Assembly (NCBI GenBank): GCA_014360805.1
Contig: JACIWU010000005.1
Span: forward strand, 1,206 to 65,205
From: Chloroflexota bacterium
GTDB lineage: Bacteria; Chloroflexota; Anaerolineae; DTLA01
Length of the DNA: 64,000 bases
Direction: 5' to 3'
Positions within the stretch are counted from its first letter, which is position 1; every line of letters starts with the position of its first letter. Under the pieces are notes generated by a model. It was given only the letters and a program-made list of their open reading frames with translations. It made no database searches and had not been told where the DNA came from. Positions 784 to 44,939 of this stretch are shown here, piece by piece. The position numbers and the translations under genes were made by a program.

Positions 784-2283
784 TTACAGGCCCGACAGCA
801 ACCGCGTCATGGCCGCGTTGATCGTGTCCACAATCAGCGGCGGGTACAACCCGAACAGCACCATGAAGATCACCAGCGGCCACAGCGTGATCTTCTCGTA
901 GGTTTCCATATCGGTCAGATTCGCCCACTTCTCGTTGAACGGGCCCAGGAACACGTGCTGGATGACTTTCCACAGGATGTACGCGGCGGTGAAGACGATG
1001 CCGATGACACCCACCACCGCATAGACCGGCGCGATGGCAAAGGTCCCGCGGAAGACGAAGAACTCGCCCCAGAACCCGGCCAGGCCCGGCAGCCCCAGCG
1101 ACGCCAGGCCGGCCACCAGCATGATGCCGTAGTAGTACGGCACCTTGCTCGCCAGGCCGCCAAACGCCTTCAGGTCGCGCGTGTGCGCCCGCTCGTAGAT
1201 GACGCCCACCAGGAAGAACAAGGCGCCCGTGATGATCCCGTGGTTGAACATCTGGAAGACCGCGCCGTTCATGGCGATGGCCTGGCTGGTGAGCATGTCC
1301 TCGGACCCCAGAGCAAGAGCCGCCGCGGCCAACCCCAGCATTACATATCCCATGTGGCTCACCGAGGAGTAGGCGATGAGTTTCTTGAGATCCCACTGCG
1401 CCATGGAGACCATCGCTCCGTACACGATGCTGATGACCGCAAGGACGGCGATGATGGGCGCGAACCGGTGGAACTGCTCGGGGAACATGGGCAGCAGGAT
1501 GCGGAAGAAGCCGTAGCAGCCCAGTTTCAGCAGGATGCCGGCAAGGATGACGGAGCCGGCCGTGGGCGCTTCCACGTGGGCGTCGGGAAGCCAGGTGTGG
1601 AACGGGAACATGGGAACCTTGATGGCGAACGCCAGGAAGATGGCCCAGAAGGCCAGCGCGCCCAGGGTGAAGTTCTCCACGAACGGGCGCAGCGCCGCCG
1701 CCTGGATGATGTCAAAGGTGCCCGTGTTCAGGTAGATGCCGATGATGGCCAGCAGCATGGCCACGCTGCCCACCAACGTGTAGATAAAGAACTTGATGGC
1801 GGCGTACTCCCTGCGCGGCCCGCCCCACACGCCGATGAGGAAGTACATGGGCACCAGGCCGATCTCCCAGAACACGTAGAACAGCACGAAGTCCAGCGAC
1901 ACGAACACGCCGAACATCCCCATTTCCAGCAACAGGAACAGGAAGAAGAACTCCTTGACCCTGTTCTTGATGGTAAACGACGAGTAGAAGAGGGACAAGG
2001 TGGTGAGCAGCGCCGTCAGGAAGATGAGCGGCACGCTCAGCCCATCGGCCCCCACGTGGTAGTTGACGTGGATGGTCGGAATCCAGGCAACCTGCTCCTC
2101 AAACTGGATGCCGCCGCCCTTCTCCAGGTTCACCCACAGCAGGATGGACAGGATGAGCGGGATGAAGGACACGGCGATGGAGAACTGCTTGATGAGCCGC
2201 TCCTTGTCCTTGGGCATCAGCAGCACGATGAGACTGCCCAGAAGGGGTACGAACGTGATCACGGTCAGTATGGGAAAATCCAT
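784..2283 (-). CDS. nuoM: NADH-quinone oxidoreductase subunit M
   Basis: 499 aa polytopic protein with the FWEIGLVPMYFLIGVWGG and WLPDAHVEAPTAGSVILAGILLKLG motifs of NuoM/ND4. GAGGAGG RBS. Confidence 0.9.
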   Translation of the reverse strand: MDFPILTVITFVPLLGSLIVLLMPKDKERLIKQFSIAVSFIPLILSILLWVNLEKGGGIQFEEQVAWIPTIHVNYHVGADGLSVPLIFLTALLTTLSLFYSSFTIKNRVKEFFFLFLLLEMGMFGVFVSLDFVLFYVFWEIGLVPMYFLIGVWGGPRREYAAIKFFIYTLVGSVAMLLAIIGIYLNTGTFDIIQAAALRPFVENFTLGALAFWAIFLAFAIKVPMFPFHTWLPDAHVEAPTAGSVILAGILLKLGCYGFFRILLPMFPEQFHRFAPIIAVLAVISIVYGAMVSMAQWDLKKLIAYSSVSHMGYVMLGLAAAALALGSEDMLTSQAIAMNGAVFQMFNHGIITGALFFLVGVIYERAHTRDLKAFGGLASKVPYYYGIMLVAGLASLGLPGLAGFWGEFFVFRGTFAIAPVYAVVGVIGIVFTAAYILWKVIQHVFLGPFNEKWANLTDMETYEKITLWPLVIFMVLFGLYPPLIVDTINAAMTRLLSGL

Positions 2284-2346: not shown

Positions 2347-4392
<2,046 letters not shown>

Positions 4393-39561: not shown

Positions 39562-40179
39562 TCACCCCGTCTGCGAAATCTCGTCGGGGACGCCGTCGTT
39601 GTACACGCCCTCGCGCCGAAGCACGACCCCCACCGTCTGCCACAGGATTTTCAGATCAAGGGCGTAGGACCAATGATCCACGTACCAGACATCGCGCTCT
39701 ATGCGCTGGGGCCAGGTGAGTTGATTCCTGCCGTTGACCTGGGCCAGGCCGGTTACGCCCGGGCGCACCAGCAGTCGCCGCCGCTGGAAGTCGTTGTACT
39801 TCTCCACCTGGTAGGCCAGCGTGGGCCGCGGCCCCACCAGGCTCATGTCGCCCACCAGGATGTTGAAGAACTGCGGCAGTTCGTCCAGGCTGTACTGGCG
39901 CAGGAAGCGGCCCACCCTCGTTACGCGGGGGTCGTTGTCGTGGGTGTGATACCCCAGCGGGTGCGCGGTGGCGTTCTGCACCATGGTGCGAAACTTGAAG
40001 ATGCGGAAGATGCGCCCATCCTTGCCCACGCGCTCCTGCCGGAAGAAGACCGGGCCGGGCGAATCCAACTTGATCGCAACCGCGATGACGAGGAACACCG
40101 GCGCCAGGAGCGCCAGGCCGACGACCGAGACCACGATGTCCGTCGCCCGTTTGAGAAACCGCTGAAACGCCACGCTCAT
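39562..40179 (-). CDS. Undecaprenyl-phosphate sugar phosphotransferase, small PglC/WbaP-C-terminal type (bacterial sugar transferase family). Start at MSVAFQ, abutting the upstream gene's stop
   Basis: Single N-terminal TM. KFRTM...[21 protein letters not shown] catalytic motifs. Confidence 0.8.
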
Positions 40180-41597
40180 CGCCTGCAACCGTACTGCGCC
40201 ACGCACCGGAAGCCCTCGTAGGCGCTGGAGTTGTCCACGGCGCTGTCCAGTTTCACCTGATTCACGATGGCCACCAACTCGTCGCCGGGCGCGCCTTCCA
40301 CGACCACGGAGTACTGGGCGTTGTTGGCCAGGTCGGCGTCGCTATACGTCCAGGGCCGCTCGGCCACCGACCGTCCCGGAGCCAGGGCGTAGTTCTTGAG
40401 GCCGGCGTTGGGCCACTCGGTGCCGGTGTTGAAGTCGTAGTAACGCACTGTTACCGTGGCCGTAACCGCGCCCACGTTCTGGATGATGATGGGCGTGATG
40501 TAGCCGTAGTAGCCCTTGACCACGTTGGGCAGGAACACGTACTGCGCGCCTTCGTTGAAGCCGTTGTAGGCCGAGCCGTCCTTGTGATCGGCCAGGTTGC
40601 GGTTCTGATTGACGATGGCCACCAGTTCGTCGCCCGGCTGCCCCCGCACCACGACGGAATACTGCTTGTTGGGCGGCAGAACGTTGTCGGGGTAGGTCCA
40701 CGGGCGCTCGGGCAGGGAGCGGCCCGGCTTCAGTTCGTAGTTCTTCTTGCCGGCCAGCGGGTAGAACGTGCCATCAAACCCGTAGTACTCCACGTTGACG
40801 TAGGCCGTTGTCGTGCCGACATTCTGGATGATGGCGGGGGTGATGTAGCCCGCGTACCCCTTGACCATATTGGGCAGGTACACATTCGGCCCGCCCGACG
40901 GGAAGCCCGAATAGGCCAGGTCGGTGTCGCGCCCGACCTGGTTCACCGCGCCGACGATGGACTGCCCGACGTCCGCCGTCGCCACCACCGCGTACTGTTT
41001 GTTGGTGGGCAGTTCGGAGTTGGGGGCAACCGCCGGGTCGTACTCGTAACTAACGTTGGGCGGCAGGACGATCACGCGCTTGGCGCTCTCAATGGGGTTG
41101 CCGGTATTGAAGTCAAAGAACTCAATGGTAACCGTGGCGTCGGTGTCGCCGCTGTTCTGGATGTAGAACGGCGTGCTGAAGCCATAGTAGTGCTTGGTGA
41201 TGTTGGGCAGGAAGACCTTGCGCGTGCCCGGTTCCAGGGCGTTGTAGGCCATCTCGCGGCCCGTGGCCAGTTCGTTGACCACCCCCGCCAGCGGACGGGT
41301 GCCGTGGATGACCATGGAGTACATGCCGTCGGTGAGAGCGGGGTCGGGGTTGAGATAGGGGCGGACGGCGCGCGCGCGGCCCGGCTCCAACTGGAAGGTC
41401 TCGCGGGCCGAGGGGATGTACGCGCTGTCGGACATGCGGTAGTAGTCCACGAAGACCGTGGCCGTAGCGTCGCCCATGTTCTGCACGACGACCGGCGAGC
41501 GCCAGACCATCCCCGGCGGGTAACTGCCCTGTCCCTGCGCCGCGATGGGGAGGAGCAGGACGATCACGGCCACGGCGACGACCAGCGACTTTCTCAT
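40176..41597 (-). CDS. Secreted hypothetical protein with four tandem repeats of about 95 aa. Start at ATG 41597 (MRKSLVVAVAVIVLLLPIAAQG), with AAGGAGGG RBS
   Basis: Signal peptide. Repeat core (V/F)(F/Y)LPN(I/M/V)(T/V)K.Y.G..TP..IQN.G...A.V.(I/V)E(F/Y)(F/Y).F. The 56-codon upstream extension in the track is rejected. Confidence 0.65.
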   Translation of the reverse strand: MRKSLVVAVAVIVLLLPIAAQGQGSYPPGMVWRSPVVVQNMGDATATVFVDYYRMSDSAYIPSARETFQLEPGRARAVRPYLNPDPALTDGMYSMVIHGTRPLAGVVNELATGREMAYNALEPGTRKVFLPNITKHYYGFSTPFYIQNSGDTDATVTIEFFDFNTGNPIESAKRVIVLPPNVSYEYDPAVAPNSELPTNKQYAVVATADVGQSIVGAVNQVGRDTDLAYSGFPSGGPNVYLPNMVKGYAGYITPAIIQNVGTTTAYVNVEYYGFDGTFYPLAGKKNYELKPGRSLPERPWTYPDNVLPPNKQYSVVVRGQPGDELVAIVNQNRNLADHKDGSAYNGFNEGAQYVFLPNVVKGYYGYITPIIIQNVGAVTATVTVRYYDFNTGTEWPNAGLKNYALAPGRSVAERPWTYSDADLANNAQYSVVVEGAPGDELVAIVNQVKLDSAVDNSSAYEGFRCVAQYGCRR

Positions 41598-41643
41598 GAC
41601 GCCCTCCTTGTGTGCGCCCCCCAAGTTCCCCCTTGCCGCGCCA

Positions 41644-41672
41644 TTATAGCGTGCCCCGCGAAAAATGACAAC
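41644..41672 (-). promoter_or_regulatory. Candidate promoter for the repeat-protein gene: -35 TTGTCA, 17 bp spacer, -10 TATAAT, within cGTGCTATAATgg
   Basis: About 40-nt leader to the RBS and ATG. Confidence 0.5.
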
Positions 41673-41700
41673 TGGGTGCGGGCTGCGCGAGCGTTCCCAC

Positions 41701-41729
41701 CTGCGACGCACCTCGGAGGTGCGTCGCAG
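41701..41729. repeat. Family C palindrome ctgcgacgcacctcggaggtgcgtcgcag
   Basis: 12-bp perfect arms around a ctcgga loop. Related copies at 43567, 47952 and 56558. Confidence 0.7.
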
Positions 41730-41749
41730 GTTGAGCCGCATAGCGAGCA

Positions 41750-41803
41750 CAGGGCGGGTTCCCATTACCTGCGCCCCCGGCGGCTATGGAAAGCCGCCCT
41801 ACG
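41750..41803. repeat. Family A double-hairpin repeat (inverted orientation, first hairpin degenerate) with the shared cgaataacacgaat flank to 41850
   Basis: cagggcgggttcccattacctgcgcccccggcggctatggaaagccgccctacg. Confidence 0.75.
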
Positions 41804-41855: not shown

Positions 41856-43124
41856 CTACCGAATCACCTCCACCCCGCCCATGTACGGGCGCAGCACCTC
41901 GGGCACCACAATGCTCCCGTCGGCCTGCTGGTAGTTTTCCATCACCGCGATCATGACGCGGGGCAGCGCCAGTCCCGACCCGTTGAGCGTGTGCACGTAC
42001 TCGGGTTTTGCGCCCGCCTCGCGGCGGAAGCGAATGTTGGCGCGCCGCGCCTGGAAGTCCAGGAAGTTGGAGCATGAGGAGACCTCCAGCCACTCGCCGC
42101 AGCCCGGCGCCCACATCTCCACGTCGTACTTGGCAGCGGCGGTGAAGGACAAATCTCCCGTGCACATCTGCACCACGCGGTGCGGAATGCCCAGTTTCCG
42201 GCACACGTCCTCGGCGTTGTCAATCAGGGTTTCCAGTTCCTGCATGGACGTTTCGGGCGCGACGATCTTCACCATCTCCACCTTGTCAAACTGATGGCCG
42301 CGCTTGATGCCCCTCACGTCGCGGCCCGCGCTCATCTTCTCGCGTCGCCAGCACGGCGTGTACGCCACATAGTACAGAGGCAGCGTGCCGGGGTCCAGGA
42401 TCTCCTCGCGGTGCAGGTTGGTTACCGGCACCTCGGCGGTGGGCACCCACCATAGGTCGTCCTCCACGTCGTGGTAGAGGTTCTCGCCGAACTTGGGCAA
42501 CTGCCCCGTGCCCCACAGGCACTTCTCGTTGACCACGAACGGCGGATAGACCTCGGTATAGCCGTGTTCGTTCACGTGCAAATCCAGCATCCACGCGATG
42601 AGGGCGCGCTGGAGCCGAGCGCCCAGTCCCCTGAGCACGTAGAACCGCGCGCCGGCGATCTTCACGCCGCGCTCAAAGTCCAGGATGCCCAGCGCAGGCC
42701 CCAAATCCCAGTGGGGCAGCGGCTGGAAGTCAAACTGCCGCGGCTCGCCCACGGTGCGGACGATCACGTTGTGGGTCTCGTCGGGGCCCACGGGGACGCC
42801 GGGCGCCGGCATGTTGGGCACTTCGTACAGCGCCGCCGTCAGCCGTTCGTCCACGGCCTTCAGTTCCGTTTCCAGTTCGCGGATTTGGTCGCCCACCTGG
42901 CGCATCTCGGCCACCAACTGCTCCCGCTGGGCGGCGTCCTTGATGCGGGGAATCTCCCTGGACACCGCGTTGCGCCGCGCCCGCAGGCTTTCCACCACCT
43001 GCAGCAGTTCGCGCCTGCGCCGGTCCAGTTGCAGGATTTCGTCAATGGGCGCGGTGGTGTTCAAGTCCACCAGCGCCTGCTTCACCTCGTCGGCGTGCTC
43101 GCGTATGAAGTTGAGGTCTAGCAT
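41856..43124 (-). CDS. serS: Seryl-tRNA synthetase. Start at ATG 43124 ([15 protein letters not shown]) with AAGGAGGG RBS; the 155-codon in-frame upstream extension is rejected
   Basis: Class II aaRS motifs 1-3. N-terminal coiled-coil arm. 423 aa. Confidence 0.93.
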
Positions 43125-43198
43125 TTTCTCCCTCCTTGACACAACGACTCTCCGGATTGTCCATGCCGCACGGCGCGGCCCCGAAAAACGAAAAGGCC

Positions 43199-43216
43199 CC
43201 CATCCGAAAGGACGGG
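43199..43216 (-). terminator. Leader hairpin CCCGUCC-UUUC-GGAUGGG (extendable to 9 bp) followed by GGCCUUUUCGUUUUUC, about 60 nt upstream of the serS ATG. Candidate attenuator/terminator
   Basis: Read on the minus-strand transcript. Confidence 0.45.
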
Positions 43217-43484
43217 AGCCTCGGCTACCGTGTTGCCACCTTCCTGCGCCTGCCCCTCGCGGAGCAGACCTCAGTGGGTCGGCGCGCGTCCGACCCTGCC
43301 CTGTAACGGGGGCCACCGGCTCGGCATACTCCGGGCGGATGCCTCCGCCCGTTTCCGCCTGCGACTCCGGAGTGCTTTTCGGCCGGGCCGTGCTGCCGCT
43401 TTCCACCTGCTGCGGCTCTCTGGGAGCCGTGCGCCGCGACCTACTCGTCTCCATCACCGTCGTTGCTATACGCTTGTTGTCAAC

Positions 43485-43513
43485 ATTATGGCGCGAACCC
43501 GCGTCGGTGTCAA
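43485..43513 (-). promoter_or_regulatory. Candidate serS promoter: -35 TTGACA, 17 bp spacer, -10 CATAAT. Implies a 5' leader of about 350 nt
   Basis: Read on the minus strand. Confidence 0.45.
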
Positions 43514-43566
43514 ATCGGCCCCGCGCCAGGCCGGGTTCTATTTTGTGTTGGCGTGCGAGGTGCGAC

Positions 43567-43602
43567 GCACTTCCGGAAGTGCGTCGCACCTCGGATCAGG
43601 GT
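43567..43602. repeat. Family C: perfect 36-bp palindrome gaggtgcgacgcacttccggaagtgcgtcgcacctc
   Basis: Exact reverse-complement identity over 36 nt, checked by hand. Confidence 0.85.
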
Positions 43603-43634: not shown

Positions 43635-44939
43635 TTATCGCCCGCCCGCGCCGCGGACGTCGCTAGGAGCCTCTGGCGCCGGAGGCGTTCGCGCGGACGC
43701 CCAGGGGACGTAGATTTCCCAGCGCTCGCGCAGGTAGGGGCGCTGGCGGATGAACGCCTCCGCCTGGCGCGCCACCACCCGCTCGGTCTCCTCAACGGAC
43801 ATCCCTTCCGTCTCCTGAAGGAACGCCAGTTGTCGGGCGGCGCATAGCGGGATGAGGGATTCCACCACCCGGTCGGGGTCGGCCTCTCCCTTGTTGTACA
43901 CGGTAACGAAGTCGTACACACAGCGCGCCCAAAGGTCGTCGGGGAAGCGGAAGCCCTCGGCCGGTTGATTCTGCAGTTCGCGTATCGCGTCCAGGTGCTC
44001 CGGGGTCAGAGCCACCTGCCACAGGCGGCGGTGGCGCTTGGATGGCTGGCGGAACCGCTCGCCAAGGTACGCCTCGGTGAGGATGCCCCGGTCCGGCGCT
44101 TCCAGCGGCGTGCTGCCGAGGACGGGCGTGGGCTGCACCGCCGGGAAGGTAAGCCACGTCTTGCGGAACACGTATGCTATGCGGAACAGCGTCCCCGCCA
44201 TCTGCGCGAACGCCTGATCGGTGGTGGAGGACGGTTCGCGCGATTCGTGCCTGCGCGTGCCCAGCGCGACCTGGCCGATGCGTCGCCCCTCCTGGACGGC
44301 GACGGCGGTCATCCAGACGCCCACGCCCGCCCTGGCCACCTCCGTCTCCCAGACATCCTTGTCGGCGAAGTGGCCTGCCAGTTCGCCCGACACGCCCAGC
44401 ACATCGGCGGTGGGCTGGCGCACATCGCGCCCCAGGAGCGCACGGAGGAGGGGATAGGCGATGAGGTCTATGGGGCCGCTCTCGGTGCGCGGATAGGTGT
44501 AGTACGGGGTAACGTATTCGTACTCGCCCGAGAGGATGGGGCCGGCGAGAGCCTGCACCCACCAGGGCGGCACGCCCTTCAACTCTCCGTCCAGGATGAT
44601 GCAGGCGTCGGCCTCCAGGGCCATGGTCATCTGGAAGATGGCGCGCACTGCGCTGCCCCGCCCCGTAACGCCGTGGTAGCCGGTTACGATGCGCTTCACG
44701 TTGTCGGGCATGGGCGGGGCCGATGCCGCCGCCACGGTGTCGTCGGTGGAACCCCCATCGGCCACCACGAGCACCGTACGCAGGTCCGGATAGTGCGCGG
44801 CGAGGCCCATGGACACCTGTTGCACAAGGGCGGCAATCGTTTTCGCGTTGCGGTAGGCAGGGATGCCTGCGACAAGGTCTGCCCTGCCGATCTGCCGGAT
44901 GCGCCGCCTGGCGTCGGCCCTGAGGGCTGTCTCAAACAT
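43635..44939 (-). CDS. GT-A fold glycosyltransferase (family-2-like / glycosyl-3-phosphoglycerate-synthase-like)
   Basis: N-terminal LVAGIPAYRNAKTIAALV...LVVADGGSTDDT is the nucleotide-sugar binding part of GT-A enzymes. 434 aa. Confidence 0.55.
   Translation of the reverse strand: MFETALRADARRRIRQIGRADLVAGIPAYRNAKTIAALVQQVSMGLAAHYPDLRTVLVVADGGSTDDTVAAASAPPMPDNVKRIVTGYHGVTGRGSAVRAIFQMTMALEADACIILDGELKGVPPWWVQALAGPILSGEYEYVTPYYTYPRTESGPIDLIAYPLLRALLGRDVRQPTADVLGVSGELAGHFADKDVWETEVARAGVGVWMTAVAVQEGRRIGQVALGTRRHESREPSSTTDQAFAQMAGTLFRIAYVFRKTWLTFPAVQPTPVLGSTPLEAPDRGILTEAYLGERFRQPSKRHRRLWQVALTPEHLDAIRELQNQPAEGFRFPDDLWARCVYDFVTVYNKGEADPDRVVESLIPLCAARQLAFLQETEGMSVEETERVVARQAEAFIRQRPYLRERWEIYVPWASARTPPAPEAPSDVRGAGGR

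Follow-up and report, generated by a model that had tools for sequence, protein, structure and literature searches.

Does the long untranslated leader of serS in this Chloroflexota contig act as a T-box, and if so, which tRNA would it read? The window (the whole 64,000-nucleotide stretch of contig JACIWU010000005.1 that was analysed) carries serS on its minus strand, and a first-pass annotation had suggested T-box control from a handful of short words in front of the gene; all the motifs that it quoted are found on the minus strand where it had placed them. The leader has every sequence-level feature that defines a T-box save a curated Rfam score, with a discriminator core that carries two unusual bases, and it is, in our reading, very probably a transcription-attenuating, serine-specific T-box riboswitch controlling serS.

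The serS gene, its leader and its surroundings

The coding sequence of serS runs from an ATG at 43124 to a stop at 41856 (minus strand; 422 amino acids, with Pfam matches), behind a Shine-Dalgarno sequence, AAGGAGGG, at 43137..43130 of the same strand. Residues 1-106 of the product correspond to positions 1-108 of the Pfam profile Seryl_tRNA_N, the class II core (tRNA-synt_2b) is also matched, and all 160 SerRS homologues fetched align from residue 1 or nearby. That the product is a seryl-tRNA synthetase beginning at ATG 43124 is secure. The frame stays open upstream for a further 155 codons (465 nt), up to a GTG at 43589. The first-pass annotation was right to deny that this frame (41856..43589) represents a longer protein, but not in ascribing its openness to GC3 bias: GC1/2/3 is flat in the extension, at 0.66/0.67/0.65, against 0.69/0.39/0.89 in the serS coding sequence. 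The extension thus does not code, and its frame is open by chance. A longer SerRS protein is ruled out by the start of the Pfam match at ATG 43124 together with this flat upstream profile; to read the 465 nt as coding would give serS a false N-terminus.

The intergenic region on the minus strand measures 510 nt, from the stop of the upstream ORF (43635) to the serS ATG (43124). It contains, as had been claimed, a sigma-70-type promoter (43485..43513, minus strand), with TTGACA at 43513..43508, a 17-nt spacer and CATAAT at 43490..43485, which agrees with the consensus at 11 of 12 positions; two such sites were found in 2.5 kb, against 0.4 expected from shuffles. Comparable TTGACA/TATAAT promoters stand immediately upstream of the homologous leaders at loci L008 and L006. 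Transcription would start near 43478 and give a leader of about 354 nt, in keeping with the length of about 350 nt first proposed, and a promoter scan of the stretch between the terminator described below and the serS ATG found no alternative promoter-like site.

Two related and nearly perfect palindromes flank the serS unit, at 43555..43594 and at 41700..41730. The upstream one is CGAGGTGCGACGCACTTCCGGAAGTGCGTCGCACCTCG; the other, a shorter copy just past the serS stop, has the same TGCGACGCAC...GTGCGTCGCA core, and no U tract is found at either. The palindrome 14-mer, with up to 2 mismatches allowed, occurs 10 times in the window where 1.4 would be expected, an excess that comes mostly from the two sites themselves. 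They resemble intergenic hairpins of the REP type or factor-independent structures at transcript ends. The ORF at 40176..41765 (minus strand), downstream of serS, has no Pfam family above the cut-off; it begins with a hydrophobic N-terminal segment, MRKSLVVAVAVIVLLLPIAAQG, and contains about four internal repeats of some 100 amino acids each with the motif ...PN..KGYYGYITP.IIQN.G...A.V.V.YY.F..., and its product is probably secreted. On the other side, the 434-amino-acid ORF upstream of the leader (43635..44939, minus strand) has no Pfam match at E <= 0.001.

A T-box below the Rfam cut-off

Under an E-value threshold, the Rfam T-box model RF00230 matches the minus strand at 43466..43205 over its full length (model positions 1-219 of 219) with 53.7 bits. 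The E-value is 8.4e-11 when the 851-nt region is searched and 6.3e-9 when the search covers all 64 kb, both strands and 4227 families, and this is the sole Rfam match with E <= 0.01 in the window. The RF00230 check that the first-pass annotation had put forward thus gives a significant match, and a default scan gives nothing: at the gathering threshold, which stands at 93 bits in the Rfam copy used, the window has zero matches, and the T-box becomes visible only under an E-value threshold. Other Rfam families yield only chance-level miRNA or CRISPR-like matches, on the neighbouring palindrome.

The score falls 39 bits under the gathering threshold because the Stem II distal helix enters the alignment as a 16-nt insertion, a further 19 nt are inserted behind the F box, and the helices are GC-rich where the consensus is AU-rich. 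That threshold is a threshold for annotation pipelines and no biological feature, and it is divergence from the family consensus that puts the serS T-box under the standard database cut-off. A real T-box missed by the default gathering-threshold scan is a practical point for annotation, and high-GC T-boxes of Chloroflexota are probably under-counted for the same reason.

A score under the gathering cut-off, with a CM bias term as high as 24.8 bits, might also be produced by a leader that is structured and GC-rich, or by an attenuator of unrelated kind, with short T-box-like words in it by chance; GC-rich sequence folds well anyway, and the folding z-score of the whole leader is only -2.3. We give such a chance resemblance next to no probability, since the match covers the entire model at E = 6.3e-9, the modules all stand in canonical order with a Ser codon in the exact specifier columns, and compensatory changes are found in three separate helices among the serS-locus leaders of 63 relatives. 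These relatives are other Chloroflexota with homologous leaders at their serS loci, 60 of them directly upstream of serS. The RF00230 E-value, the homologous leaders and the covariation together effectively refute chance resemblance.

Stem I and the specifier codon

Stem I, the arm that recognises the tRNA body and anticodon in a T-box, occupies 43364..43460 (minus strand; Rfam model positions 7-104), and its structure in the window leader was verified base by base. It has a GA/K-turn motif at its base (ACGGUGAUGGAG ... CUCCGGAGU), an AG bay, CCCAGAGA, at 43424..43417, which overlaps the AG box, CCAGAGAG, at 43423..43416, and a distal loop, AGCAGGUGGAAA, at 43411..43400, all on the minus strand. 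In the Rfam alignment the consensus stretches UGA..GGA, AGAGA and UUGGUGaaA are matched by UGAUGGAG...CUCCGGAG, CAGAGAG and GGUGGAAAG respectively, and CAGAGA is invariant, being present in all 27 of the seed sequences (27/27).

The specifier, which at first could not be placed with confidence, is located by the Rfam alignment and by the columns of the 63 relatives: it is the serine codon AGC at 43376..43374 (minus strand), in agreement with the regulated gene, serS. The loop in which it lies is ACGAGUA / GAA-A-AGC-A (GAAAAGCA), with its 3' side at 43380..43373, AGUA and GAA being the two S-turn halves and the A at 43373 the conserved purine after the specifier. Read one position to either side, the frame would give AAG (Lys, -1) or GCA (Ala, +1) in place of AGC (Ser, frame 0). 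Bacterial tRNA-Lys and tRNA-Ala normally have the discriminator A73, whereas the bulge of this leader, discussed below, is UGGC, and for this reason the Lys and Ala frames do not fit.

At the specifier columns the 63 relatives have UCC in 61 cases, UCG in one, and UCC offset by one column in one; AGC is found in the window leader only. No closer relative with an AGC specifier was found among the best SerRS relatives (73% identity for genomes, 77% for metagenome contigs), all of those with the leader using UCC. In the window's high-GC3 ORFs, AGC accounts for 31% of serine codons and UCC for 25%. To go from UCC to AGC takes two substitutions, via a Thr or a Cys codon, and that the specifier has changed at two positions yet is again a Ser codon argues for continuing selection on the reading of the tRNA by the specifier. 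In an otherwise uniform clade, the specifier of this leader has clearly crossed from one serine codon box to the other (UCC to AGC), although the two boxes are unconnected.

Stem II, the pseudoknot and Stem III

In Stem II (43323..43359, minus strand; Rfam positions 106-150) an internal loop of the S-turn type, GGAAA / GAGUAU, separates the lower helix, GGC/GCC, from a distal helix of 8 bp, CGGGCGGA-GGCA-UCCGCCCG; the distal helix accounts for the 16-nt insertion relative to RF00230 and is recovered in both the MFE and the centroid folds. The Stem IIA/B pseudoknot follows at 43298..43319 (minus strand), with CGG/CCG as IIA and, as IIB, GCCC at 43313..43310 paired with GGGC at 43301..43298. The CCGUUA that had been equated with the conserved F box is exactly that, the Rfam alignment setting it inside this pseudoknot at 43309..43304 (minus strand), and CCG(U/A)UA is present in 63/63 relatives.

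An extra hairpin, GGGUCGG-ACGCGCG-CCGACCC (43276..43296, minus strand), separates the pseudoknot from the purine-rich GAGG in front of Stem III; it is the 19-nt insertion of the RF00230 alignment and forms in the MFE structure. Loci L002, L081, L082 and L100 have a hairpin of other sequence at this position; judged from these sequences, the hairpin is a lineage-specific expansion of a sub-clade and not unique to the window. Stem III itself, UCUGCUCC-GCGA-GGGGCAGG, lies at 43249..43268 (minus strand; Rfam positions 164-183, and folds), flanked by CUGAGG on the 5' side and GCA on the 3' side, the 5' RAGG being common to the relatives. When the whole leader is folded, Stem II, the extra hairpin, Stem III and the terminator all appear in the MFE structure.

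Antiterminator, terminator and the tRNA 3' end

The antiterminator, with its discriminator helices, is at 43206..43244 (minus strand; Rfam positions 188-216) and consists of helix A1 (GGAAGG/CCUUUC), a 7-nt bulge (UGGCAAC) and helix A2 (ACGG/CCGU). Its T-box sequence is AAGGUGGCAACACGG, at 43242..43228 of the minus strand. The description of this core as one G short does not hold, for it aligns ungapped to AGGGUGGUACCGCG: the leader has A in place of the first G of A1, with a change in the partner too (AAGG...CCUU), the first pair of the helix being A-U instead of G-C.

The UGGC of the bulge is complementary to 5'-GCCA-3', and the proposal that it matches the GCCA end of tRNA-Ser is borne out by the tRNA genes of relatives: in related Chloroflexota four tRNA-Ser(GCU) and five tRNA-Ser(UGA) genes all have G as the discriminator, followed by a genome-encoded CC or CCA. 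No tRNA gene was found within the 64-kb window, and from the relatives we infer that the source genome would have a tRNA-Ser(GCU) with G73.

The intrinsic terminator (43183..43222, minus strand) is a 13-bp stem, GAGGCUCCCGUCC-UUUC-GGAUGGGGGCCUU, at 43222..43193, followed by a U tract, UUCGUUUUUC, at 43192..43183, which ends 58 nt before the serS ATG. The hairpin CCCGUCC-UUUC-GGAUGGG and U tract reported by the first-pass annotation at about 60 nt before the ATG are thus present, though the stem, at 13 bp, is larger than was described. In its 5' arm the terminator takes up the 3' strands of both A2 and A1. In folding the two alternatives, as had been advised, we find that their strands overlap and that they are mutually exclusive, the terminator at -24.7 kcal/mol and the antiterminator at -7.6 to -12.9 kcal/mol. 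A weak antiterminator combined with a stronger terminator is the arrangement to be expected of a switch that would need tRNA to hold the antiterminator. Each leader was folded separately, the register of the 3' arm in MAFFT alignments varying among sequences, and of the 63 leaders scanned, 62 (that of the window and those of 61 relatives) have in this position a hairpin of -10 kcal/mol or below that ends at a U-rich tract.

T-boxes that act on translation by sequestering the Shine-Dalgarno sequence, as in actinobacterial ileS, are known outside the Firmicutes (PMC7583486, PMC11297988), and the U tract in the window is imperfect; that the serS leader works in this manner and not by termination is nevertheless extremely improbable. 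The helix that competes with the antiterminator is a 13-bp GC-rich hairpin with UUUUCGUUUUUC directly after it, the Shine-Dalgarno AAGGAGGG lies about 45 nt past the U tract and in neither of the alternative helices, and hairpin-plus-U-tract terminators are found in 61 of the 62 relatives scanned.

In transcription attenuation as we propose it for serS, Stem I, aided by Stem II and the IIA/B pseudoknot, would bind tRNA-Ser, with the AGC specifier pairing with the GCU anticodon and the platform formed by AG bay and distal loop touching the tRNA elbow. If the tRNA is uncharged, its GCCA 3' end would pair with the UGGC bulge and stabilise the weak antiterminator, and while the antiterminator is held RNA polymerase would read through into serS; if it is charged, the far more stable terminator would form and transcription would end about 60 nt before the ATG. 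The regulatory response predicted for the leader is thus one to the charging of tRNA-Ser.

Homologous leaders at other serS loci

The SerRS relatives are Chloroflexota, mostly Anaerolineae, the best of which reach 73% identity in species-representative genomes and 77% in metagenome contigs. With a covariance model of Stem I, built from the hand-checked structure of the window leader and iterated once, homologous leaders are recovered at 42 of the 80 genome loci and 21 of the 80 metagenome loci. Alignment by sequence served less well: a two-sequence MAFFT alignment was mis-registered, the single-sequence covariance model being used instead, and MAFFT with RNAalifold on 27 Stem I sequences returned the distal helix only, with the other helices out of register. 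The T-box core is recognisable in 62 of the 63 relatives. At the orthologous position the Rfam T-box scores are 111.5 bits for L002, 95.6 for L008 and 79.5 for L006, so that the window leader, at 53.7, has the lowest RF00230 score of the four leaders scored (53.7 vs 79.5-111.5).

The pairing in these leaders far exceeds that of controls in which the partners were slid, at 93.9% of cells vs 31-51% for Stem I (43 sequences), 88.9% vs 14-53% for helix IIB (64 sequences) and 99% vs 35-54% for the antiterminator (43 sequences), though the alignments are partly structure-fitted or anchored on conserved words and the percentages lean towards the model accordingly. All five helices of Stem I covary, 18 of its 19 pairs having changes on both sides, and the pair types of helix IIB include GC, UA, AU and CG. 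Given the slid controls and the variety of pair types, chance pairing is untenable.

The element is by no means universal. At L003 (SerRS identity 73%) and L001 (71%), the nearest genomic relatives, no T-box was found, and the leaders are short; that of L003, behind a TTGACA/TATAAT promoter, measures about 120 nt and contains a single small hairpin. The regions without a T-box are 2400..3000 in each of L001 and L003. As these nearest genomic relatives do without it, the element is dispensable in the clade, and since the T-box leader was likewise not found at the Dehalococcoidia loci, its presence is patchy. It has therefore been repeatedly gained or lost in Anaerolineae-like lineages.

Several of the loci have features of their own. 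In L005 (4342..4643), L007 (4342..4720) and L038 (4405..4701), a cluster of genes for tRNA-Ser(UGA), tRNA-Ser(GCU) and tRNA-Arg(GCG) comes directly after serS, and in L005 and L007 there is no T-box upstream of serS. In L019 (1471..1777), L021 (1713..1975) and L036 (609..849) a distance of 1-2.4 kb separates the Ser (UCC) T-box from the serS downstream of it, which implies operons with other genes ahead of serS. In the metagenomic locus L150, at about 1290..1400, Stem I (UCC) and the F box are normal and the T-box core is aberrant, AGGUGACGCCACG, UGGC being replaced by UGAC and the A2 loop having an insertion; the discriminator of L150 may be a truly degenerate or variant one.

Two substitutions in the discriminator

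Of particular concern in the window leader is the discriminator, whose helices and UGGN are present but which differs from that of all the relatives at two places. The bulge is UGGC-AAC, with A at 43233, where 61 of 62 relatives have ACC and one, L096, has AUC; and the 3' flank of Stem III is CA, with C at 43246, where 62 of 62 relatives have AA. Both the AAC bulge and the CA flank are unique when set against the 63 relatives. The ACC of the bulge and the AA 3' of Stem III have been described as stabilising the discriminator (review PMC7583486), and the two changes could weaken the sensing of the tRNA 3' end. They are the only real reason to doubt the full function of the serS T-box.

If the doubt were justified, the leader would be an eroding or impaired descendant of a Ser T-box that no longer senses charging properly, serS being expressed through leaky termination or in response to some other input. 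Besides the two unique substitutions (43233 and 43246) in conserved discriminator elements, whose function is reviewed in PMC7583486, the lowest RF00230 score among the four leaders scored and a U tract that is interrupted (UUUUCGUUUUUC) would be in keeping with such decay, and the near relatives L001 and L003 have lost the element or never had it. Against this, every helix of the leader is intact and the terminator is strong (-24.7 kcal/mol); a terminator that could not be relieved should be counter-selected in front of serS, assuming this to be the sole serS of the genome, and there is no alternative promoter-like site between terminator and ATG. The specifier, altered at two positions and still Ser, speaks for continued selection on the reading of the tRNA, and L096, with its AUC, also varies at the same position of the bulge. 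We consider erosion very unlikely on this balance, and the serS leader to be an ordinary Ser T-box, almost certainly functional in transcription attenuation.

The AGC specifier and both discriminator substitutions occur together in one leader alone among the 64 homologous serS T-boxes. It might be supposed that the two are linked, retargeting from tRNA-Ser(GGA) to tRNA-Ser(GCU) through the change of UCC to AGC having gone with a remodelling of the discriminator, either as a compensatory swap in a tertiary contact or in adapting to the new isoacceptor's acceptor end; such a link is unlikely, in our estimation, if not quite so unlikely as erosion. Whatever its origin, the leader is a natural double variant of a conserved discriminator core, and as such open to testing.

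Comparison with known T-boxes

Ser T-boxes on serS in Chloroflexi and AGC specifiers have both been published already, and the finding of the serS T-box leaves knowledge of how T-boxes work unchanged. T-boxes are established in the Chloroflexi (PMC2494555, PMC3766115), as the first-pass annotation had said, and Ser T-boxes have been listed on serS operons of Herpetosiphon aurantiacus (Haur_4345-43-serS) and Roseiflexus castenholzii (Cagg_1428-mutT-serS) in RegPrecise (Sun et al. 2013, PMC3766115, Additional file 2). The window leader shares with these its phylum, the RF00230 family, the Ser specificity and the regulated enzyme, and the Herpetosiphonaceae locus L036 has a leader homologous to that of the window. 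In Herpetosiphon and Roseiflexus other genes follow the T-box and serS is distal in the operon, as is also the case in L019, L021 and L036, whereas in the window the T-box stands directly before a monocistronic serS. The specifier differs too, being UCC or UCG in the 63 members of the clade, the Herpetosiphonaceae L036 included, and AGC in the window.

Its statement on T-box control of serS in Firmicutes likewise agrees with the literature: serS is among the genes most consistently regulated by T-boxes there, and in at least 29 of 34 Firmicutes its T-box leader is conserved (Wels et al. 2008, PMC2494555). The window leader resembles these in its architecture (Stem I, Stem II, Stem IIA/B with the F box, Stem III and the antiterminator/terminator pair), in the gene and in the logic of attenuation, and differs from them in its very GC-rich helices, the longer distal helix of Stem II and the extra hairpin before Stem III. 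The base pair of A2 that adjoins the bulge is A-U in the window and G-U in the Rfam consensus.

An AGC specifier has been validated experimentally in the serA T-box of Paenibacillus polymyxa (PMC8002221), which is a serine T-box, addresses tRNA-Ser(GCU) via AGC and acts by means of an intrinsic terminator, all of which would hold for the window leader too. That T-box, from a Firmicute, belongs to the serine biosynthesis gene serA, is without Stem IIA/B, and has the bulge UGGU (PMC8002221). For six-codon amino acids in general, NNC specifiers are preferred (TBDB preprint).

The ileS T-boxes of the Actinobacteria (Mycobacterium, Nocardia) are like the window leader in being non-Firmicute elements with Stem II and Stem IIA/B that precede an aminoacyl-tRNA synthetase gene (PMC7583486, PMC11297988). 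In these the Stem I is shortened and it is the Shine-Dalgarno sequence that becomes sequestered (PMC7583486, PMC11297988), whereas the window leader has a full-length Stem I, complete with AG bay and distal loop, and a terminator whose U tract lies far from the Shine-Dalgarno sequence of serS.
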